Shown: piece after piece, positions 1 through 27,083 of the stretch
How the letters are laid out: each line of letters begins with the position of its first letter
Numbering within the stretch: the first letter of the stretch is position 1
From: Escherichia coli
Lineage (GTDB): Bacteria; Pseudomonadota; Gammaproteobacteria; Enterobacterales; Enterobacteriaceae
Assembly: GCF_048403405.1 (NCBI RefSeq)
Contig: NZ_CP183129.1
Strand: one strand, 5' to 3'
Length of the DNA stretch: 64,000 nt
The notes under the pieces: generated by a model
Database searches by the model: none
Told to the model about the DNA's origin: nothing
What the model saw: only the letters and a program-made list of their open reading frames with translations
Translations under genes and position numbers: made by a program

Positions 1-115
1 CCAGACTGACACCGCGCAGCGTCCCGGCACTGGGTTTCATCAGCGTGACCTGTTCGATAACCTGCTCACCACGTTTGACCGGATTGTCCAGGGTAATCAC
101 ATTTTCTTTGTTCAT
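1..115 (-). CDS. E: Tail assembly chaperone gpE, N-terminal part only (3-prime end beyond window start)
   Basis: Reverse complement of 1-115 reads MNKENVITLDNPVKRGEQVIEQVTLMKPSAGTLRG, the P2 gpE N-terminus as remembered; ATG at 115-113; positioned directly downstream of FII as in P2. Confidence 0.75.
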   Translation of the reverse strand, partial: MNKENVITLDNPVKRGEQVIEQVTLMKPSAGTLRGVSL

Positions 116-17571: not shown

Positions 17572-19344
17572 ATGACCATCACCACAGACACCACTCTTTT
17601 ACACGACCCGCGTCGTCAGGCGGCGCTGCTGTACTGGCAGGGGTTTTCCGTGCCGCAGATTGCCGCCATGTTGCAGATGAAACGCCCGACGGTGCAGAGC
17701 TGGAAACAGCGCGACGGCTGGGACAGCGTTGCCCCCATCAGCCGTGTCGAAATGAGTCTGGAAGCGCGGCTGACCCAGCTCATCATCAAACCGCAGAAAA
17801 CCGGCGGTGACTTCAAGGAAATTGACCTGCTGGGACGCCAGATTGAACGACTGGCACGGGTCAACCGCTACAGCCAGACCGGCAACGAGGCAGACCTTAA
17901 TCCGAACGTCGCTAACCGCAACAAAGGCGGGCGGCGCAAACCGAAAAAGAATTTTTTCAGTGACGAGGCCATCGAAAAGCTGGAGCAGATTTTCTTTGAG
18001 CAGTCTTTCGAATATCAGTTGCACTGGTATCGCGCCGGGCTTGAGCACCGCATCCGCGATATCCTGAAATCCCGCCAGATTGGCGCGACGTTTTATTTTT
18101 CCCGCGAGGCGCTGCTGCGCGCCCTGAAAACCGGTCATAACCAGATTTTTCTGTCGGCCAGTAAAACGCAGGCGTATGTGTTCCGCGAATACATCATCGC
18201 CTTTGCCCGTCTGGTTGACGTTGACCTGACCGGTGACCCGATTGTCCTGGGCAATAACGGCGCAAAACTGATTTTTCTCGGCACCAACTCCAACACCGCG
18301 CAGAGCCATAACGGCGACCTGTACGTCGACGAGATTTTCTGGATCCCGAATTTTCAGGTACTGCGTAAGGTGGCATCAGGTATGGCCTCACAGAGTCACC
18401 TGCGCTCGACCTATTTCTCCACCCCGTCCACGCTGGCACACGACGCCTACCCGTTCTGGTCGGGTGAACTGTTCAACCGGGGACGCGCCAGCGCCGCCGA
18501 ACGCGTGGAAATCGACGTCAGTCATAACGCCCTTGCCGGTGGGCTTCTCTGTGCGGACGGCCAGTGGCGACAGATTGTCACCATTGAGGACGCCCTGAAA
18601 GGCGGCTGCACGCTGTTCGACATTGAGCAGCTCAAACGCGAAAACAGCGCCGACGATTTTAAAAACCTGTTCATGTGTGAATTTGTTGACGACAAGGCGT
18701 CGGTGTTCCCGTTTGAGGAGCTGCAACGCTGCATGGTCGACACGCTGGAAGAATGGGAAGACTATGCGCCGTTTGCCGCAAATCCGTTCGGCTCCCGACC
18801 GGTATGGATTGGTTACGACCCGTCACACCGTGGCGACAGCGCAGGATGCGTGGTACTGGCACCGCCGGTGGTGGCCGGTGGCAAATTCAGGATCCTTGAG
18901 CGTCACCAGTGGAAAGGCATGGACTTTGCCACTCAGGCTGAATCCATCCGCAAACTCACCGAAAAATACAACGTCGAATACATCGGTATTGATGCCACCG
19001 GCCTCGGTGTCGGCGTGTTCCAGCTCGTGCGCTCGTTCTATCCCGCCGCGCGCGACATCCGCTACACGCCGGAAATGAAAACCGCAATGGTGCTCAAGGC
19101 AAAAGACGTCATCCGCCGTGGCTGTCTGGAATATGACGTCAGCGCCACCGACATCACCAGCTCGTTTATGGCTATCCGCAAGACCATGACCAGCAGCGGA
19201 CGCAGCGCCACCTATGAGGCCAGCCGCAGCGAGGAAGCCAGCCACGCCGACCTCGCCTGGGCGACCATGCACGCCCTGTTAAATGAGCCACTCACCGCCG
19301 GTATCAGCACCCCGCTGACATCCACCATTCTGGAGTTTTACTGA
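17572..19344 (+). CDS. P: Terminase large (ATPase) subunit gpP
   Basis: ATG at 17572 (MTITTDTTLL...), ~590 aa. Confidence 0.9.
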   Translation: MTITTDTTLLHDPRRQAALLYWQGFSVPQIAAMLQMKRPTVQSWKQRDGWDSVAPISRVEMSLEARLTQLIIKPQKTGGDFKEIDLLGRQIERLARVNRYSQTGNEADLNPNVANRNKGGRRKPKKNFFSDEAIEKLEQIFFEQSFEYQLHWYRAGLEHRIRDILKSRQIGATFYFSREALLRALKTGHNQIFLSASKTQAYVFREYIIAFARLVDVDLTGDPIVLGNNGAKLIFLGTNSNTAQSHNGDLYVDEIFWIPNFQVLRKVASGMASQSHLRSTYFSTPSTLAHDAYPFWSGELFNRGRASAAERVEIDVSHNALAGGLLCADGQWRQIVTIEDALKGGCTLFDIEQLKRENSADDFKNLFMCEFVDDKASVFPFEELQRCMVDTLEEWEDYAPFAANPFGSRPVWIGYDPSHRGDSAGCVVLAPPVVAGGKFRILERHQWKGMDFATQAESIRKLTEKYNVEYIGIDATGLGVGVFQLVRSFYPAARDIRYTPEMKTAMVLKAKDVIRRGCLEYDVSATDITSSFMAIRKTMTSSGRSATYEASRSEEASHADLAWATMHALLNEPLTAGISTPLTSTILEFY

Positions 19345-20363
19345 TGAGCAAGAAAAAAGGGAAAACACCGCAACCTGCGGCAAAAAAAATGACCGCCAGC
19401 GCCCCGAAAATGGAGGCATTCACCTTTGGCGAGCCGGTGCCGGTACTCGACCGCCGTGACATTCTGGATTACGTCGAGTGCATCAGTAACGGCAGATGGT
19501 ATGAGCCGCCGGTCAGCTTTACCGGTCTGGCGAAAAGCCTGCGTGCTGCCGTGCATCACAGCTCGCCGATTTACGTCAAACGCAATATTCTGGCCTCGAC
19601 ATTTATCCCGCATCCGTGGCTTTCCCAGCAGGATTTCAGCCGCTTTGTGCTGGATTTTCTGGTGTTCGGTAATGCGTTTCTGGAAAAGCGTTACAGCACC
19701 ACCGGTAAGGTCATCAGACTGGAAACCTCACCGGCAAAATATACCCGCCGTGGCGTGGAGGAGGATGTTTACTGGTGGGTGCCGTCCTTCAACGAGCCGA
19801 CAGCCTTCGCGCCCGGCTCCGTGTTTCACCTGCTGGAGCCGGATATCAATCAGGAGCTGTACGGCCTGCCGGAATATCTCAGCGCCCTTAACTCTGCCTG
19901 GCTGAATGAGTCGGCCACGCTGTTCCGCCGCAAGTATTACGAAAACGGCGCTCATGCCGGATACATCATGTATGTCACCGATGCCGTGCAGGATCGCAAC
20001 GATATCGAAATGCTTCGCGAAAACATGGTGAAGTCGAAAGGCCGCAACAACTTTAAAAACCTGTTTCTCTATGCCCCACAGGGGAAAGCCGACGGCATTA
20101 AAATTATCCCCCTCAGTGAAGTGGCGACGAAGGACGATTTTTTTAATATCAAAAAAGTCAGCGCCGCAGATCTCCTGGACGCACACCGCATCCCCTTTCA
20201 GTTGATGGGCGGTAAGCCGGAGAATGTCGGGTCACTAGGAGATATTGAAAAAGTGGCAAAGGTCTTTGTCCGCAATGAACTCACTCCATTACAGGAGAGA
20301 ATAAAGTCAATAAATGAATGGTTAGATATGGAAGTCATAAAATCCCTTGATTATAACTTATAA
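19344..20363 (+). CDS. Q: Portal protein gpQ
   Basis: 339 aa, ATGA overlap with P stop; last ~100 bp look AT-rich. Confidence 0.9.
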   Translation: MSKKKGKTPQPAAKKMTASAPKMEAFTFGEPVPVLDRRDILDYVECISNGRWYEPPVSFTGLAKSLRAAVHHSSPIYVKRNILASTFIPHPWLSQQDFSRFVLDFLVFGNAFLEKRYSTTGKVIRLETSPAKYTRRGVEEDVYWWVPSFNEPTAFAPGSVFHLLEPDINQELYGLPEYLSALNSAWLNESATLFRRKYYENGAHAGYIMYVTDAVQDRNDIEMLRENMVKSKGRNNFKNLFLYAPQGKADGIKIIPLSEVATKDDFFNIKKVSAADLLDAHRIPFQLMGGKPENVGSLGDIEKVAKVFVRNELTPLQERIKSINEWLDMEVIKSLDYNL

Positions 20364-20375
20364 GTAAATATATAA

Positions 20376-20402
20376 AGTTGGCGGAATGCAATCCCGCCAA
20401 CT
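20376..20402. terminator. Hairpin AGTTGGCGG-AATGCAATC-CCGCCAACT between convergent Q and cargo operon; likely bidirectional terminator
   Basis: 9-bp perfect stem read from the sequence in the 42-bp gap between the stop codons. Confidence 0.6.
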
Positions 20403-20405
20403 TAA

Positions 20406-21113
20406 CTATATATACTTCCTTTTTACTCTACTTAATTCTATCACTGATGAGGAGTGACAAAATGACAAATTAATAGTATCGATATAATCCAAAATTTGAC
20501 TCTCAACCTCAATAAAAATATTTTTGGGCCCATTACTAATCGATATACCGATTTCATCCAAAACAGCCATCATTTTTCTCTGATGAGTTTTATATTTATA
20601 GTCTTTATTTTCCTCTGTAATATGTGCATTGGCTTCCTCAATAACACATTTGATTCTAGATATTATTTCTAGATAATCTCTCGAAACAGATATATCACCG
20701 CCTTGCGCTTCAGGGAACATAACCCTATACCATCTAAAAAAATTAACTTTCTCTGGATAGATGCTACTTCTTTTAGTTAACTCAGCACTTGCAAATTCTC
20801 TAAACATCGTCAGATGACTAGTGTAATTACTATTATTATTATTTTTAACTCCAGCGTTATATGTCATCAAAGCAATCATAACACCAAAAACGGTAACAAA
20901 AGTTGTTATAAGCCATCCAAACGCCTGAAAATACATTACTATACCAGATGTTTTTTCCGCAAAAAATTTTAAGCACTGGCTATCGAAGCATATATCACGC
21001 TCATATAGCTTTTCATTCTGAATAGTTTCAAAAAGAGAAATTAGCGAAAAAATCAAAAAAAGAGCTGACGACACACCGACAATATATTTGAGAAGTCTAA
21101 TATTTGCATTCAT
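20406..21113 (-). CDS. Cargo protein with two N-terminal transmembrane helices, translationally coupled to the upstream reverse transcriptase; candidate effector
   Basis: ATG at 21113 overlaps RT stop (ATGA); 235 aa; hydrophobic segments IVGVSSALFLIFSLISLF and GIVMYFQAFGWLITTFVTVFGVMIALMTY; AT-rich by eye. Confidence 0.65.
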   Translation of the reverse strand: MNANIRLLKYIVGVSSALFLIFSLISLFETIQNEKLYERDICFDSQCLKFFAEKTSGIVMYFQAFGWLITTFVTVFGVMIALMTYNAGVKNNNNSNYTSHLTMFREFASAELTKRSSIYPEKVNFFRWYRVMFPEAQGGDISVSRDYLEIISRIKCVIEEANAHITEENKDYKYKTHQRKMMAVLDEIGISISNGPKNIFIEVESQILDYIDTINLSFCHSSSVIELSRVKRKYI

Positions 21114-22336
21114 AATGGTTTTAAAGATGCCAATCTAGATTTAAAACACTCCAGTTTTTCTTTAAATGATTCAGAGCGAGTAAGAATAATCATCTTATAT
21201 CTCGTCAAATCATATTTTCTTTTATACCAATGTTTATTTTGATTACCTTTCGAATACGACAACTCTAAACTTTTTATAGCTGCATCAATCACAGCAACAT
21301 CTCTTTTAGATGGCATCGGTTTTATTGCCTGCAACTGTTTCTTGAATGATTCATATTTTTCATGCCCAACACGGCCAAGCTTATTCACTCTCCCCATACA
21401 TCTATTGAATTCTTTTCTGTATGCAACACTTGTTTTTGTGTTATTTTTTGCCGCCAGTAATTTCAAATTATGTATAGATGCCCTGATTCTTTTGACTTCA
21501 TCGGATGGTAGTCGAGGTGAGTCATAGTCAACTCTTAAACCATGTACTTTTATAGGTTCAGATGAACAGTGAAATATTTTTGTTTTGTGCTTATTTATCG
21601 GCAAGTCATGCTCAGAAAGCATCCTCTCTATATGGCTTTGCATTTGAGAAAAATCATAATTACTTATTTTAGATGACACGGTAATATCATCTACCAAACG
21701 CGTATAAACAAGTCCTTTCCTCTGCGCACGTCTTACCACATCCCCTTCAACAGCGAATAAACACAAAGTTGCTATATAGCTTGATGTTAAGGCCCCCTGT
21801 ACGACAAAATCATCCTTAGTACATATATCCACCAAGTATTCAAGAGCCTCATCCTTAATATGCAATATCTCCTCAAACACGCTCCTAACCAGATCTCTAT
21901 GGATATTATCGAAAAAATTACTTATATCCACCTTGAGAACTGTTTTTGCTCCACAATGAGCCTTTGCACATGAAACATAGTCACGTTTGACATTAGAATT
22001 TAAAACATCATTTTTACTGGGAACTGAACCAAACAAAAATGAAGGAAAAACAACCAATTCCTTAAAAATACGTTTATTAATTCTACTCTGTAATAATCTC
22101 ATTTTAGGATGTAGGGAGTAGACAATCCGTTTGCTTCCGTCAATTTTGGGAATTTCTTTTAGAGTATATTTCTCATCTAATGATAATTCTGCAATAGCTT
22201 TAAGCTCTTCAACAGAAATCGATAAAGCCTTTGACAACTTTTCAAGTGTTGTGATAGGAGCATTGGATTTGCTGTATGGTTTAAATTTATCCATAAACAT
22301 ACCATTCAAATTCAAAGTTACGTACGGTCTTCCCAT
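21110..22336 (-). CDS. Reverse transcriptase (retron-like or Abi-type), defence-associated candidate
   Basis: RT motifs in the translation: IPKIDGSKRIVY (fingers), VLKVDISNFFDNI (motif A), QGALTSSYIA (motif B-like), YTRLVDDITVSS (YxDD; DNA ~21671-21706), and KVHGLRVDYD resembling the retron VTG region. Start uncertain: ATG candidates at 22336, 22300, 22294; the supplied ORF extends to a TTG at 22384. Confidence 0.8.
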   Translation of the reverse strand: MGRPYVTLNLNGMFMDKFKPYSKSNAPITTLEKLSKALSISVEELKAIAELSLDEKYTLKEIPKIDGSKRIVYSLHPKMRLLQSRINKRIFKELVVFPSFLFGSVPSKNDVLNSNVKRDYVSCAKAHCGAKTVLKVDISNFFDNIHRDLVRSVFEEILHIKDEALEYLVDICTKDDFVVQGALTSSYIATLCLFAVEGDVVRRAQRKGLVYTRLVDDITVSSKISNYDFSQMQSHIERMLSEHDLPINKHKTKIFHCSSEPIKVHGLRVDYDSPRLPSDEVKRIRASIHNLKLLAAKNNTKTSVAYRKEFNRCMGRVNKLGRVGHEKYESFKKQLQAIKPMPSKRDVAVIDAAIKSLELSYSKGNQNKHWYKRKYDLTRYKMIILTRSESFKEKLECFKSRLASLKPL

Positions 22337-22625
22337 ACTCAAGGGTGGAACAGCAGAGATGCTTACATCAACAATTGTCAGCAACAGCCTCTGCTATCTT
22401 TCGACCGTACGTAATGTCGTCGGCTACGGCACCATCGTAGTTGACGACGGTGGGGCCTCGCTGATAGGTCCATAGTGGACGCTTTTTTGTAAAAGCAAAA
22501 ACTGACAATTTAATGTTGTTGACTGCCGCATACCAAGCGAATCGCTGGTGCGCTAAGAATAATGCAACAAAAAAATAAGAATTTCAACCGGGTAACTGCA
22601 AGCCAGCGACATCGTTTAGCGCGCA

Positions 22626-22644
22626 GTGCTTTCCCCGCCTCGCC
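22626..22644 (-). other. cos: cos cohesive-end site (19 nt, GGCGAGGCGGGGAAAGCAC on the minus strand)
   Basis: Exact match to the P2 cohesive-end sequence as remembered; embedded in a locally GC-rich noncoding stretch between the RT gene and the 612-aa gene. Confidence 0.75.
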
Positions 22645-22805
22645 CGCCCGCTTCGTGGGGCGGTTTTAATGCAGGTGCAATACCGCTTTTGAGCCACGCC
22701 CGTCCTGGCGGACGCACGGCCGGAACATGCAACTCCGGCACATGCAAAACCATGCACATATTGCACGCAGAAAGATAAATGCCAAAATACCTAAATCAAC
22801 TTCCA

Positions 22806-24644
22806 TTAATCAGCCAGATAAGGTTCAACTTTATCTTCCCATACACTAAATAAAGGCAAACAAGTTAAATAAAAGATAAAGACACAGGCAAAAACTGAAG
22901 TTGGTTGATAACAATGATTTACAGTATACCTGCCATGAGCCATCGTGTGTCTAATTGCAGCACCACCTTTCATATTGAACAATAAATCCATAGTCAATAC
23001 ATGATCACTATCAAAAACACCTTCCATTTCACTCCTATAATTTGCAAGCATTTGAGATAGGCTAGTAGCCTCCTCAAAAAGCGACACATCTATTTTCGTT
23101 GTTTCTTTTCTTCTTAATTCTAAAATCCATCTAATTGAATTCTCCAATTGCGGCAATAACAAATAACAGGCAGACACATAATCTCCCTGCCAAAGCTTAT
23201 AAAACCCCAAAGAAAATATTTCTGCATACCCAGGTGGAACAAATGCACTTTGTTGTGAGATTGGGTCAAATGTATTTTCATTTAATGAATACCTAGCCAA
23301 CACACTTTGCCTAACGACTTCAAACTCACCACAAACATAGACCTGATGCTCAATGTTACTAGTTCTTAAATAATTTGCACAAGCATCATTTAAACTTATA
23401 TCCCCCGCAGGATCCAAAGGTGAACGACTTGCTACAACGCGCCCTCTATCATCATAAACAACCGTTTCACTCATATTAAGAAAAAAATGTTTTTTAGCAT
23501 CGGAACGAGCTCTTTCCATAATTTCACTGGCACTTACAATCTTAAATCTAGCAATTAAAGTTTTAATTACCCTTGAGAAATCCAATTGATTATAAACATG
23601 CTCTTTCTGAGCGATAACATCACTAAGATCCATTGGTATTGCAAAGAAGTGCATTTCATCATTGATTTGATCTCGAATAGAATTCAATTCCTCTCTAATC
23701 TTTTTAATTTCTTCATTCATTCCACCAATTGCTCTAAATTCGCCAAGAGCAACTCTTAACCAATGAGCCTTCAATATTGAAGATGAAGACTGTTCAAATT
23801 GAGCCAATGTTATTTCTGACGCTTTAATTCTGCACCGTCTTCCTTGCTCTTCCATATCGTTTTTAACATATAATTCAGACGCAAAATAAAACAATTTTTT
23901 CACTGCATCAAAATAAGACGCTCCACAATGCTCATCAGCTATCTTTTCTGCATTCTCAGCCAATTGCAAGGGACACAATAAATTATTCTTATAAAGAATT
24001 TCAGAAACTCTTAATACACCGGTGAATATACCAGAGTCTATTAATACATGATATAACCTTAATGTCGAATCAACTATCCCCCCTTGTAGTTGTTTTTTCC
24101 TGCCAATAAGCATGCGCGATATTGCGATACCTCTATCCAAGCAGTCAACAACATCAAAAATATGGATATCACCTGACTCTTGTTTTTCTATTAAAGTATC
24201 GCAAGCATCATTAACCATTAGAGAATATGACTCTATTGCTTTATTGGCAGAGTCTATATCCTTACGGTTATTTATCCATAAAACATCACACACCCTAGAT
24301 ATAATATAAGGATTATCGGAGTTTTCTTTAATACAAGTTAATATTGTTGAAAAACTCTCCTTATAATCTGAAGGCCTATAGCCCCTCTCAGGATAGAGAA
24401 TGATTTTTGGCTCAAAACCGATAATATCACCAGACCTAGAAAATTTAAAATTAAACAACGCACGTAATAAATAGCAAAGCCGCCAAGAACTTACATCGTT
24501 TTTTAGCTTGTAAGATGACAACAACTGAACAAAATAAGACTCCATATCAAAATGAGAATAACTTCTTGGCGATGATAATATACTGGCGTATTCACTTTTT
24601 TTAAAATCATCAACTGAAATAGAAAAAACATCAAACTCGCTCAT
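22806..24644 (-). CDS. Cargo protein of unknown function (612 aa) with C-terminal HEPN-like R-x4-H motif (AIRHTMAHGRY); candidate abortive-infection RNase
   Basis: ATG at 24644 with GGTGAGGA upstream; no P-loop seen; AT-rich by eye; occupies the P2 tin/old position between A and cos. The HEPN call rests on one short motif. Confidence 0.6.
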   Translation of the reverse strand: MSEFDVFSISVDDFKKSEYASILSSPRSYSHFDMESYFVQLLSSYKLKNDVSSWRLCYLLRALFNFKFSRSGDIIGFEPKIILYPERGYRPSDYKESFSTILTCIKENSDNPYIISRVCDVLWINNRKDIDSANKAIESYSLMVNDACDTLIEKQESGDIHIFDVVDCLDRGIAISRMLIGRKKQLQGGIVDSTLRLYHVLIDSGIFTGVLRVSEILYKNNLLCPLQLAENAEKIADEHCGASYFDAVKKLFYFASELYVKNDMEEQGRRCRIKASEITLAQFEQSSSSILKAHWLRVALGEFRAIGGMNEEIKKIREELNSIRDQINDEMHFFAIPMDLSDVIAQKEHVYNQLDFSRVIKTLIARFKIVSASEIMERARSDAKKHFFLNMSETVVYDDRGRVVASRSPLDPAGDISLNDACANYLRTSNIEHQVYVCGEFEVVRQSVLARYSLNENTFDPISQQSAFVPPGYAEIFSLGFYKLWQGDYVSACYLLLPQLENSIRWILELRRKETTKIDVSLFEEATSLSQMLANYRSEMEGVFDSDHVLTMDLLFNMKGGAAIRHTMAHGRYTVNHCYQPTSVFACVFIFYLTCLPLFSVWEDKVEPYLAD

Positions 24645-24797
24645 TCCTCACCTTTAAAGCACTTAACAAACAATCATGGTAAACAATACCAAACTGCAAG
24701 CAACGATTAAATACAGAAAACTCTTTCTGTCGAGATTTTTCAATAACACTAAATATATACAGTACGAAATTATCTAATATTGCGTGAATTTTTGCCA

Positions 24798-27083
24798 TTA
24801 TGTCCACTCCATTACTGTTGAGAATCCCGGCCACTCATCAATGACCGGATACGTGAATTTTTTCCCGCCATAATTTATGGTCGCTCCCCGAGCCAGCGCC
24901 TCAAGCTCCCATCGCTGTGGCCTGATACCGTTCTGAGCAAGGTCAACGCGGATACGGGTAATTTGCATTCGTTCCGACCGGGTCAGTCTGGCCGATGGCG
25001 CTATTTCATGCGGTTTTAACGGGCTTCCGTTTCTTTGCTGACGGTTTGGTCTTCTCAGACCGTGTTTTAATGCACCTCTGAGCGCCCTCACGACCTCCTG
25101 GTCATTCCATTCGATAACACCGTCATCTACCAGATTAAGCACTGCTACGGCGTGTTCAGAAGGCGTGGGAGCCGGTGACGAAGTATCACCACCGGTGAGC
25201 TTTCCACAGTTATTGACAGGACTCCGAGGCGCGGCGATGCCGCTTTTTAAAGTCAACGGCTCAACGACCGGAACTTTCGGCACAATGCGCCAGTCCGTCG
25301 TTCTGGTGATATGAATATGACGCGTGCCGAGATGCGGCGCGTAAATGCCGACCACTCTCTCGACTTCTTCCTCGTACTCGTTAACGTCATCCGACGGGCT
25401 ACGGGCGACCCTGACAGTCTGACAATCGCGCGGGACATTTGCCCCGCCCTGCGCGCTGATATACAACGCAAAATCACCACTGTCTGCGGCGGCGCGTGCA
25501 GCCTCGACGCGTTCGTCAAACTCATCAGCAATGCTGACGCCGCGAGGCAATTTGCGTAGTTCACGGTAAGCCCCCATTGTCGGCAGGCCAACCGTTTTAA
25601 ATTGCGGGATACGCCACGTTGACGCCCATGCGGTAACAGCCGCTGCAGTGTCTTTCAGCGGCCTGCCGGTATCGTTATCGAGCTGACCATCCAGTGCATA
25701 GCCGTCGATATTTTTTGAGATGTATTTCGCGATATATCCCGCAGCACCGCCCCGGTTAAGGTGTTTCGCCTGAAAACGGTTTCGCGCGGCTCCTCTTTCG
25801 TCGCCATCCTCTTTGAGCGCATAGCGACGCATGATTTCGATAATCTGGTTACGCTGGCGTGGATTACAAAAAAGCATCATATGCCAGTGCGGCGTTCCGT
25901 CGTGGTGTGGCTCGACGACTCGCAAACCGTAGACCTGTAAATCATTATCCTTGAATGCCGTGCGCATCAGGCTCCAGATACGGCAGAGATAACGCTGCGC
26001 ATCCTTCGGATTAAATGCCTCATCATTCCAGCCGTGATTAAGCTGCACGGTTTTACTTTCTCCTTTTCCGACCTGACGTGTCGGGTGATACTTTGACGGC
26101 GCGGTCAGCGTGATAAACATCCCCACATCACCCTCTGCGGCGGCGTAACGCTCAATACCGGCGATGGTGTTCATCAGCTCCATCCGGCGAATTTCAGGAT
26201 TAGAAATACTGCCCATCACCTTACTGATAAGGTCGATGCGCTCGCCGGTTTCCCTGTTTTCGAGGTCACACGATTTAAGAAATTCCAGATTTGCCTGGCG
26301 GCGTGCACGCACATCACGAATGGCGTGTTTACTGGCATAAGGAGAACGATCTTTATTGACCTCCCCGACAGCAATCAGTAACGCCTCATGCCAGCGCATA
26401 CGCTGGCCTTTAAGCTGATGAGTCCACCACTCATCGTTAAACAGGCGGGCAATGGCAGAATATGCCTGCCTCGTGGTCATCTGTCCTTTACGGTATTTTT
26501 TCCAGTAGAGCGGGGAAATATTGAAAGCACGTGCAGCGCCAGCAACATGACTATACAGGTGAGCCTGCGCCTCATCCGTAAACAGCGATTCTTTTTCGCC
26601 ATGCGCATCCACCCAGGCATCGCTGAGTTCCTCATACATCATGAAAAGCTGCGATGAGATACGGGCGGCAAACTTTTTCAGCTCCTTGTCATTCATTCCA
26701 GGCAGGCGCGCATAGTGGTCACGCTCTGCCAGAAACAGCAACGACGCGTCGGTGTTCATTTCATGGCGCTGATTCACGCGCTCAATGCGCGGCCATAAAC
26801 GACGCTGAAAAGTGGATGTGAGGAAATAAAACCCGTGTACCGGGCTTTTATTGCGCCGGATGTAGTCATAGCGTGAAGTAAACAGCGAGCGCAAAAAGTA
26901 AGGCAGGCGGTTAATCGTGGATAAAACCCCTTGCACCTGACGCATCTCGTCACGTGTAAGGGGTCTTTCGCGCCCGACGGCCTCGCGTGGCGCGTTCCAT
27001 GCATAAGCACCGGTAAACGTCTTACCGGTGCCTGCGGCAAATGCTGACGGAGGGACAAAACGCCCGGAGGCTTTAACGGCCAT
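24798..27083 (-). CDS. A: Replication initiation protein gpA (rolling-circle nickase)
   Basis: ATG at 27083 (MAVKASGRFVPPSAFAAGTGK...), 761 aa; the supplied ORF extends to an upstream TTG. Confidence 0.9.
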   Translation of the reverse strand: MAVKASGRFVPPSAFAAGTGKTFTGAYAWNAPREAVGRERPLTRDEMRQVQGVLSTINRLPYFLRSLFTSRYDYIRRNKSPVHGFYFLTSTFQRRLWPRIERVNQRHEMNTDASLLFLAERDHYARLPGMNDKELKKFAARISSQLFMMYEELSDAWVDAHGEKESLFTDEAQAHLYSHVAGAARAFNISPLYWKKYRKGQMTTRQAYSAIARLFNDEWWTHQLKGQRMRWHEALLIAVGEVNKDRSPYASKHAIRDVRARRQANLEFLKSCDLENRETGERIDLISKVMGSISNPEIRRMELMNTIAGIERYAAAEGDVGMFITLTAPSKYHPTRQVGKGESKTVQLNHGWNDEAFNPKDAQRYLCRIWSLMRTAFKDNDLQVYGLRVVEPHHDGTPHWHMMLFCNPRQRNQIIEIMRRYALKEDGDERGAARNRFQAKHLNRGGAAGYIAKYISKNIDGYALDGQLDNDTGRPLKDTAAAVTAWASTWRIPQFKTVGLPTMGAYRELRKLPRGVSIADEFDERVEAARAAADSGDFALYISAQGGANVPRDCQTVRVARSPSDDVNEYEEEVERVVGIYAPHLGTRHIHITRTTDWRIVPKVPVVEPLTLKSGIAAPRSPVNNCGKLTGGDTSSPAPTPSEHAVAVLNLVDDGVIEWNDQEVVRALRGALKHGLRRPNRQQRNGSPLKPHEIAPSARLTRSERMQITRIRVDLAQNGIRPQRWELEALARGATINYGGKKFTYPVIDEWPGFSTVMEWT

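Follow-up and report, generated by a model that had tools for sequence, protein, structure and literature searches.

We conclude, with a probability of about 95%, that the two-gene cassette on the minus strand of the window (the whole 64,000-nucleotide stretch of Escherichia coli DNA that was analysed) is retron Ec48, also called Retron-Eco6 and placed in type IV by the Mestre classification, and that it forms defence cargo of a P2-like prophage. Established directly here are the Ec48 identity of all three components, the integrity of the catalytic and retron motifs, and the genomic context, and the family matches uphold the original prediction of an anti-phage defence module of retron type with an Ec48-type two-transmembrane (2TM) effector, borne at a variable locus of P2. 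They also dispose of the further option considered at that time, a new pairing of reverse transcriptase (RT) and effector or a DRT/Abi system: because both proteins belong to the Ec48 family itself (PADLOC, NCBIfam, UniRef) and RefSeq already annotates the effector in this way, the pairing is known rather than new, the anti-phage retron Ec48 having been characterised earlier. One small point goes beyond this identification, a set of conserved RNA helices past the end of the published ncRNA. The names Ec48, Retron-Eco6 and type IV refer to one known system (Mao et al. 1997; Millman et al. 2020; Mestre et al. 2020).

Table 1. Coordinates of the retron cassette, its RNA elements and the surrounding P2 features
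Feature	Position	Strand	Basis
Cargo segment replacing P2 nt 28-262	20303..22617	.	blastn; AT-rich block
G+C-rich hairpin between convergent portal gene Q (+) and retron operon (-)	20375..20403	.	Terminator-like scan
Retron Ec48 effector, 235-aa membrane protein, two N-terminal transmembrane helices	20406..21113	-	PADLOC, NCBIfam, UniRef, hydropathy
Retron Ec48 reverse transcriptase, 394 aa	21110..22294	-	PADLOC RT_IV; RefSeq (PGAP) start 22294
Conserved structured RNA between published ncRNA 3' end and RT start	22318..22387	-	Covariation
12-bp helix I1, 3' arm (pairs with 22403-22414), within 22318..22387 RNA	22318-22329	-	Perfect inverted repeat
CCC/GGG hairpin, holding conserved AUG, within 22318..22387 RNA	22331-22346	-	
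Stem S5, 3' arm, within 22318..22387 RNA	22350-22359	-	
a2, within 22318..22387 RNA	22368-22381	-	
msr-msd ncRNA as published for Retron-Eco6	22388..22573	-	End-to-end alignment with census-supplement ncRNA
msd, template of 48-nt msDNA	22407..22454	-	Published RT-DNA start at + strand 22407; literature length
a1, bipartite 5' repeat pairing with a2	22502..22521	-	Inverted repeat I7; MFE fold
Promoter-like site TTGAAA-17 nt-CATTAT, directly upstream of ncRNA	22559..22587	-	Consensus scan, 9/12
P2 cohesive-end site cos, 19 nt, GGCGAGGCGGGGAAAGCAC	22626..22644	-	Identical to annotated cosL, AF063097 nt 1-19

First, both proteins match type IV retron families in profile searches. The RT matches the PADLOC profile RT_IV with an E-value of 1.1e-176 and 585.7 bits over profile positions 2-385 of 386, a match which spans residues 36-423 of the ORF at its longest (424 aa, 21110..22384, minus strand), and the next-best PADLOC profiles are those of the related types RT_V (212.6 bits) and RT_VI (181.5 bits). 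In addition, PF00078 was found on a cluster representative that is 99% identical to the RT. The motifs from which an ORF of about 400 aa had originally been read as an RT (IPKIDGSKRIVY, VLKVDISNFFDNI, QGALTSS, YTRLVDD and KVHGLRV) are all present in the translation, in which YTRLVDD, CAKAH and KVHGLRV are intact. The protein shows both published Ec48 quirks, namely VHG for VTG (within KVHGLRV) and CAKAH in place of NAXXH, the variants of retron regions Y and X that have been described as specific to the Ec48 RT (PMC6868368). A search of the PDB returned no Ec48 structure and nothing matching the effector, and the entry closest to the RT was the Ec86 RT (E 4e-16). The RT encoded here carries the accession WP_000357146.1 and the retron census gives WP_097505494.1 as the reference Eco6 RT, listed for the tested clone; since these accessions differ, a few amino-acid differences between the two proteins are likely.

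The 5' end of the RT gene required a choice between start codons. An alternative in-frame ATG at 22336, the end coordinate of the original prediction, would yield a 408-aa RT, whose numbering is that of Millman et al.: in it, the catalytic VDD aspartates D202/D203 become D216/D217, the residues mutated by those authors. We prefer the start at 22294, because the 22336 AUG is rarely open into the RT among relatives: in no more than 4 of 27 does the conserved AUG lead into the RT, and in the closest relative a stop codon ends its frame after 4 codons. The span first assigned to the module, 20406-22336, encloses both genes and leaves the ncRNA and the promoter (to about 22587) outside.

The identity of the second gene product is equally firm. 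The 235-aa protein matches PADLOC 2TM_IV over its full length (E 4e-85) and scores 226.7 bits against NCBIfam NF038235 (retron_Ec48_2TM; cut-off 65), a curated equivalog named 'retron Ec48 family effector membrane protein', and its exact sequence bears the UniRef name TM48_ECOLX. Hydropathy peaks at about residues 7-31 and 58-86 bear out the two hydrophobic helices seen earlier, and the RT stop does overlap the start of this ORF as ATGA. Both helices fall inside residues 3-85, the segment deleted by Millman, and the description of the type IV family includes such a two-TM effector beside the RT (Mestre 2020).

Second, the msr-msd, of which no unambiguous trace had been found before, is present upstream of the RT on the same strand and matches the published Eco6 ncRNA and RT-DNA. 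Over its whole length it aligns with the sequence given in the supplement of the retron census; the exceptions are three single-base indels, which are probably errors in the PDF text of that supplement. The RNA folds far below shuffled controls (z = -4.0). Because the published RT-DNA starts at 22407, we assign the 48-nt msd to 22407-22454; the literature gives the length of Ec48 msDNA as 48 nt, or as 45 nt by sequencing. The msDNA product corresponds to the + strand sequence, 5' GTACGTAATG..., and the msd forms a 13-bp hairpin (22416-22428 with 22436-22448, inverted repeat I2) with a DNA fold of -11.1 kcal/mol. The locus thus combines an RT of the type IV group (clade 3), a 2TM effector, an upstream msr-msd on the same strand and intact motifs in their Ec48 variants. 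Compared with retron Ec48/Eco6, it has the same gene order (ncRNA, RT, 2TM effector), the same RT family with its VHG and CAKAH variants, a matching ncRNA and RT-DNA and the same ATGA overlap, and nothing of substance differs.

Third, the distribution of the cassette bears on whether it still works. A decayed or silent remnant of Ec48 that no longer defends its host would be in line with the promoter-like site, which is a bare consensus match of a kind whose number in the region is not above shuffled expectation. We nevertheless regard this reading as improbable, as both ORFs are full length with catalytic and retron motifs intact, the ncRNA matches a functional published sequence, and conservation at 99% or more in 56 unrelated genomes and in a sequenced phage fits a maintained function. 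The cassette was found in 56 of 5,426 complete E. coli genomes, always at least 99% identical, in single copy and chromosomal, and also in phage pro147 (99.6% identity); copies of 100% identity occur, among others, in E. coli MS 69-1, and there the RefSeq annotation assigns the effector to the Ec48 family. When plasmids and phages were searched by tblastn with the RT, the only matches besides phage pro147 were relatives of at most 40% identity, and relatives were instead gathered by scanning genome contigs.

The two readings in which the RT is not a retron RT are already contradicted by the evidence in hand. One is a defence RT outside the retrons, either of the DRT/UG class or from an Abi system (AbiA, AbiK or Abi-P2, for example), that would act with a membrane effector independently of msDNA; Abi-type RTs are known from P2-like prophages, which speaks in its favour. 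We consider this very improbable: the weak NCBIfam matches that could speak for it, to Drt3a, Drt2 and AbiA, lie far under their cut-offs (40 against 200, 35.1 against 390 and 24.1 against 250 bits, respectively), no Abi model is among the 25 best PADLOC families for the RT, the RT_IV match is full length at 585.7 bits, and the msr-msd upstream matches a published RT-DNA. A scan of 19000-26000 with Rfam at E-values up to 1 gave no match, which could be counted in favour of an msDNA-independent system, but this result means merely that no model in the library reached threshold and is uninformative on the presence of an ncRNA that was found by other means. Least probable of all is the RT of a group II intron or other mobile retroelement with a membrane-protein neighbour by chance, as its weak NCBIfam RT/maturase match reaches 45 bits against a cut-off of 300 (TIGR04416), Rfam detected no intron RNA family in 19000-26000, and the protein is without a maturase or endonuclease extension, its C-terminal part fitting the RT_IV profile to the end.

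How the retron would act can be sketched by analogy with characterised Ec48. A single promoter would drive the ncRNA (msr-msd), the RT and the 2TM effector as one minus-strand operon, and the RT would use part of this ncRNA as template for a single-stranded DNA of 48 nt that remains joined to the RNA (msDNA). The RT, msDNA and effector would together guard the host RecBCD complex, and inhibition of RecBCD by a phage (lambda Gam, T7 gp5.9) would activate the two-helix membrane protein, so that the cell would die before phage progeny are released. Abortive infection by Ec48 upon RecBCD inhibition was reported by Millman 2020, and a 2025 study re-confirmed the triggering of Eco6 by Gam (bioRxiv 2025.10.22.683967). 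We infer from this kinship that the present locus makes msDNA, guards RecBCD and kills through the membrane. Overexpressed alone, the Eco6 effector was non-toxic (Palka et al.), and a simple toxin/antitoxin picture is therefore incomplete.

The RNA architecture past the published ncRNA boundary and the geometry of priming are the sole points of some research interest. The helices beyond the published ncRNA end are real, as they covary over 27 type IV loci: 85.6% of the cells are paired, 22 of 26 pairs show compensatory changes, and none of 500 shuffles matched this covariation. The a1 repeat consists of UCAACAA, a 7-nt bulge and UUGUCAG, and the cognate a1/a2 duplex is the best in its row in 25 of 33 loci (-17.1 versus -9.3 kcal/mol for non-cognate pairs). 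This covarying bipartite helix ends in G22502, the 3' end of a1 and a candidate for the branching G, and sits 25 nt from the published msd start. A local helix of CUAUC..CGA with UCG..GAUAG would set G22456/22457 at the msd start and is attractive for Ec48; in loci L003 and L004, whose upstream sequences were read by eye, it is not conserved. We rejected three further geometries. Taking I1, followed by G22402, as the priming a1/a2 predicts an msd at 22330-22377, which is not the published RT-DNA; an msd directly 5' of the covarying a2 (22382-22429) likewise departs from the published RT-DNA and forms no stable DNA hairpin (-4.9 versus -11.1 kcal/mol for the assigned msd); and a 'permuted' model with G22325 as branching G places it at a position that is A in most relatives in the alignment.

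It is possible, though we think it rather unlikely, that the functional type IV RNA exceeds the published Eco6 ncRNA by about 70 nt and that a pseudoknot joins the msd initiation site to the 5' leader of the RT; if so, its parts would be the a1/a2 helix, stem S5, the CCC/GGG hairpin and the 12-bp helix I1. Were this true, reverse transcription and removal of the template by RNase H would remodel the leader and tune the expression of RT and effector, a milder relative of the translational switch recently described for type VI retrons. Such a regulatory role is speculation, and the type IV covariance model of Mestre 2020 may already contain the longer RNA implicitly. The type VI Retron-Vpa2 (bioRxiv 2025.10.22.683967) has an RT in the same clade 3 as Ec48, and its 'hybrid RNA' shares with the RNA described here a structure past the canonical msr-msd and long-range inverted repeats. 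In contrast to Ec48, for which msDNA is abundant, Vpa2 makes no msDNA at rest, and it has an HTH partner and a small toxic peptide coded inside the RNA, whereas Ec48 has a separate 2TM protein; moreover, Gam alone triggers Eco6 but not Vpa2.

Finally, the cassette occupies a recognised site of cargo exchange in P2-like prophages. In blastn comparisons with P2 (AF063097) and phage 10W, homology ends at 20302 and restarts at 22618, and the P2 stretch that was replaced contains the end of Q (~60 nt), the terminator tQ and the spacer that leads to cos. As first noted, the insert is AT-rich against the P2 backbone (GC 0.29-0.38 in 20300-22250; the P2 genes on either side have 0.50-0.61). The hairpin described earlier with a 9-bp stem does separate the 2TM gene from Q, and is longer than was then stated, with 13 pairs counting G-T; it has a T-rich tail, is unlike the P2 tQ terminator in sequence and is probably a bidirectional terminator. 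The position of cos confirms that the module does sit between cos and Q. Contrary to what was first supposed, this location is not unusual, having been described in 1996 for Ec67 and Ec86 and lying inside the hotspot of Rousset et al.: as cited in PMC6868368, Dodd & Egan 1996 showed that in a 186-related prophage Ec67 and Ec86 take the place of the DNA that runs from cos to the terminator of the packaging gene, and in Rousset et al. 2022 (PMC9122126) the P2 defence hotspot, whose cargo includes retrons, covers the entire stretch around cos from gpA to gpQ. Ec67 (Eco2) and Ec86 (Eco1) in 186/P2-related prophages share with the present locus the site itself, a short segment from cos to the packaging/portal terminator swapped for a retron, but differ from it in RT clade, msDNA and effector, the last being a Toprim fusion in Ec67 and, in Ec86, a protein resembling nucleoside deoxyribosyltransferases.

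Taken as an annotation problem, the locus can be named with confidence as retron Ec48/Eco6 and need not be chased as a new defence system; it serves as a clean positive control, in which a reading of raw sequence picked out an experimentally characterised defence system. The P2 old/tin genes and other gpA-gpQ cargo (Rousset et al., 2022) lie in the same cos-proximal hotspot and have the same prophage-borne anti-phage role, old/tin being on the gene A side of cos and the retron on the Q side. Here a DUF7380 / PDC-S39 gene occupies the gene A side, so that the hotspot is used on both sides, with the retron on the portal side and this uncharacterised gene on the replication side. Across cos the cargo varies between prophages, with matches in other genomes stopping at 22679.

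The two genes are those of a retron that is already known and characterised, Ec48 (Retron-Eco6), the founder of type IV, in which a membrane protein that has a pair of transmembrane helices (2TM) is encoded by a gene overlapping or just downstream of that for the reverse transcriptase (RT) (Mestre et al., 2020). The RT matched the PADLOC profile RT_IV end to end (positions 2-385 of 386; E 1.1e-176, 585.7 bits), and the retron type V and VI models scored far lower against the same protein. The 235-aa protein matched PADLOC 2TM_IV (E 4e-85) and the NCBIfam equivalog NF038235, 'retron Ec48 family effector membrane protein' (226.7 bits, cut-off 65), and its exact sequence carries the UniRef name 'Retron Ec48 transmembrane protein, TM48_ECOLX'. 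A 2.6-kb region is 100% identical in E. coli MS 69-1, GN02461 and others, where RefSeq labels the pair 'reverse transcriptase family protein' and 'retron Ec48 family effector membrane protein'. Among validated retrons, RT-Eco6 is one of two outliers in which the asparagine of the region X motif NAXXH is substituted, and its otherwise conserved VTG triplet has T changed to H (PMC6868368); the RT studied here reads CAKAH and KVHGLRV, fitting both variants. The original prediction was therefore right to propose a defence module and to suspect an Ec48-type 2TM effector, since PADLOC and NF038235 identify the proteins as those of anti-phage retron Ec48, whereas the new RT-effector pairing that it also considered can be set aside, as RT_IV, 2TM_IV, NF038235 and TM48_ECOLX all denote type IV or Ec48 itself. 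Its description of the genes also held: the quoted RT motifs, the stop/start overlap, two hydrophobic stretches in the 235-aa protein (about residues 7-31 and 58-86), a hairpin before portal gene Q, placement between cos and Q, and AT-richness (GC 0.29-0.38 over 20300-22620 versus 0.50-0.61 in the P2-type late genes either side) were all recovered.

Features of the Ec48 locus and its surroundings (window positions)
Feature	Position	Strand	Basis or remark
Portal gene Q	19344..20363		convergent to retron operon
G+C-rich hairpin	20375..20403		between retron operon and convergent portal gene
2TM effector ORF	20406..21113	minus	235 aa; ATG shared with RT TGA stop as ATGA
RT ORF	21110..22384	minus	424 aa at longest; all quoted RT motifs present
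Helix I1, 12 bp	22403-22414 with 22318-22329	minus	covariation
CCC/GGG hairpin	22331-22346	minus	covariation
Stem S5	22388-22397 with 22350-22359	minus	covariation
a1/a2 bipartite helix	22515-22521 and 22502-22510 with 22368-22381	minus	covariation
msr-msd ncRNA	22573..22388	minus	alignment to printed Eco6 ncRNA
msd	22407..22454	minus	published RT-DNA start and 48-nt length
5' hairpin	~22531-22549	minus	upstream of a1; upstream sequences and alignment
Promoter-like TTGAAA-17 nt-CATTAT	22587..22559	minus	directly upstream of ncRNA; consensus match only
P2 cohesive end (cos), 19 nt, GGCGAGGCGGGGAAAGCAC	22626..22644		

The third retron component, the msr-msd ncRNA, lies outside the coordinates first assigned to the operon (20406-22336), and the remark that no unambiguous msr/msd was found is superseded. 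An Rfam scan of 19000-26000 matched nothing, and a repeat search returned several inverted repeats upstream of the RT. The supplement of the retron census prints the ncRNA and sequenced RT-DNA of 'Retron-Eco6 (Ec48), type IV, pSLS.493' (Khan et al., PMC10849725); the aligned stretch departs from this ncRNA at only three single-base indels, each within a run of one base and apparently an artefact of the PDF text. The published RT-DNA aligns to the plus strand from 22407 (GTACGTAATGTCGTCGG...), and since the Ec48 msDNA, the DNA product, is given as 48 nt (45 nt by sequencing), we placed the msd accordingly. In its DNA form the msd is predicted to make a 13-bp hairpin (22416-22428 with 22436-22448; -11.1 kcal/mol). 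With RT, effector and ncRNA identified, none of the three retron components is missing or damaged. That this is a decayed copy is unlikely, as ORFs and motifs are intact, the ncRNA matches a functional published one, and conservation is at least 99% across unrelated hosts: the retron (20406-22577) occurs in 56 of 5,426 complete E. coli genomes, always as a single chromosomal copy at least 99% identical, and at 99.6% in the sequenced P2-like phage pro147. The ncRNA and the end-to-end match to RT_IV contradict a non-retron RT of DRT or Abi type; in the proposed profile search of both proteins, RT_IV and 2TM_IV matched in full, whereas curated NCBIfam thresholds for DRT and Abi were missed by wide margins. 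A group II intron RT fails on the same grounds, its curated threshold also being widely missed.

Homology to P2 runs through Q to 20302 and resumes from 22618 (P2 nt 27..1, the cos site), so the Ec48 cassette replaces P2 nt 28-262, a stretch that includes the terminal ~60 nt of Q, the annotated terminator tQ and the spacer before cos. Neither the final ~20 codons of Q (20303-20363, plus strand) nor the terminator hairpin matches P2; the cassette's mosaic junction thus falls within the portal gene, whose 3' end and terminator the cassette itself supplies. The site had been called unusual, but it is a classical one for retrons, known since 1996 from Ec67 and Ec86, which take the place of the DNA from cos to the packaging-gene terminator in a 186-related prophage (Dodd & Egan, cited in PMC6868368), and falls inside the cos-proximal gpA-gpQ hotspot of P2-like phages, whose cargo includes retrons (Rousset et al., PMC9122126). 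Across cos from the retron, towards gene A, where P2 carries old/tin, lies an AT-rich 612-aa gene (22806-24644, minus strand), annotated as a DUF7380 protein, which matched the PADLOC phage-defence candidate 'PDC-S39' (E 2e-68) and nothing in NCBIfam. In many retron-bearing genomes the match stops at 22679, just beyond cos, and this second cargo module is therefore independent of the retron. A 67-aa ORF overlapping the end of replication gene A (24631-24834, minus strand) had no PADLOC match or RefSeq annotation and is probably not a gene.

The copy in the window most likely works as described for Ec48. The RT would copy the msd into msDNA, and defence depends on RT catalysis and the transmembrane helices (Millman et al.). 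The published inactivating changes are D216A/D217A in the RT and deletion of effector residues 3-85 (Millman et al.); counted from the RefSeq (PGAP) start at 22294, the catalytic aspartates are D202/D203, and counted from the upstream ATG at 22336 (14 more residues, 408 aa) they become D216/D217, and both predicted effector helices fall inside residues 3-85. Ec48 is interpreted as a guard of RecBCD, with the membrane effector then setting off abortive infection, because the mutations by which lambda and T7 escape fall in Gam and gp5.9, two RecBCD inhibitors, expression of either inhibitor is lethal to Ec48-carrying cells, and Ec48 cannot be introduced into recB-deficient cells (Millman et al.). 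Triggering of Eco6 by Gam was reproduced in 2025 (bioRxiv 2025.10.22.683967), and the Eco6 effector overexpressed alone is not toxic (Palka et al.).

To locate the ncRNA, we gathered 37 type IV loci of other species (RTs 40-57% identical), which have a conserved architecture in common upstream of the RT. Cognate pairing of a1/a2 was best in its row in 25 of 33 loci (mean -17.1 versus -9.3 kcal/mol). In an alignment of 27 sequences, 85.6% of cells in S5, the CCC/GGG hairpin and I1 were paired, with changes on both sides in 22 of 26 pairs; none of 500 shuffles paired as highly, and no slid register came near. Downstream of 22388, the published Eco6 ncRNA end, lie the CCC/GGG hairpin and the 3' arms of both S5 and I1, which come to within 23 nt of the RT start; together with a1/a2, these helices would form a pseudoknot, partly within 22318-22387. 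In canonical retrons the msd start adjoins a2, whereas the published Ec48 start, C22407, lies 25 nt from a2 and inside I1. A candidate for the branching G is the 3'-terminal base of a1, G22502, which is a G in most relatives; G22456/22457 is the alternative. An AUG at 22336 (22334-22336, minus strand), on the 3' side of the CCC/GGG hairpin, hardly varies among type IV loci and in the window yields the 408-aa RT annotation of the literature. It is ruled out as a general RT start because only 4 of 27 loci have it in frame with an open path into the RT, the others starting there an ORF of 2-36 codons. For entry 530 (Acinetobacter), a further retron of type IV, the ncRNA predicted in the census (PMC10849725) takes in these downstream elements, so the extended RNA is probably not new to specialists. 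A regulatory role is conceivable by analogy with the sister type VI retrons, in which translation is controlled through an extended 'hybrid RNA'. At the ncRNA 5' end, the short 5' hairpin, whose covarying stem bears a loop of 3 nt (as in CCAGCG-AUU-CGCUGG, UAAGCG-UAC-CGCUUA and GGACG-UUU-CGUCC), is conserved in most of the type IV loci, with the motif UGCNGCAGUCGA after it.
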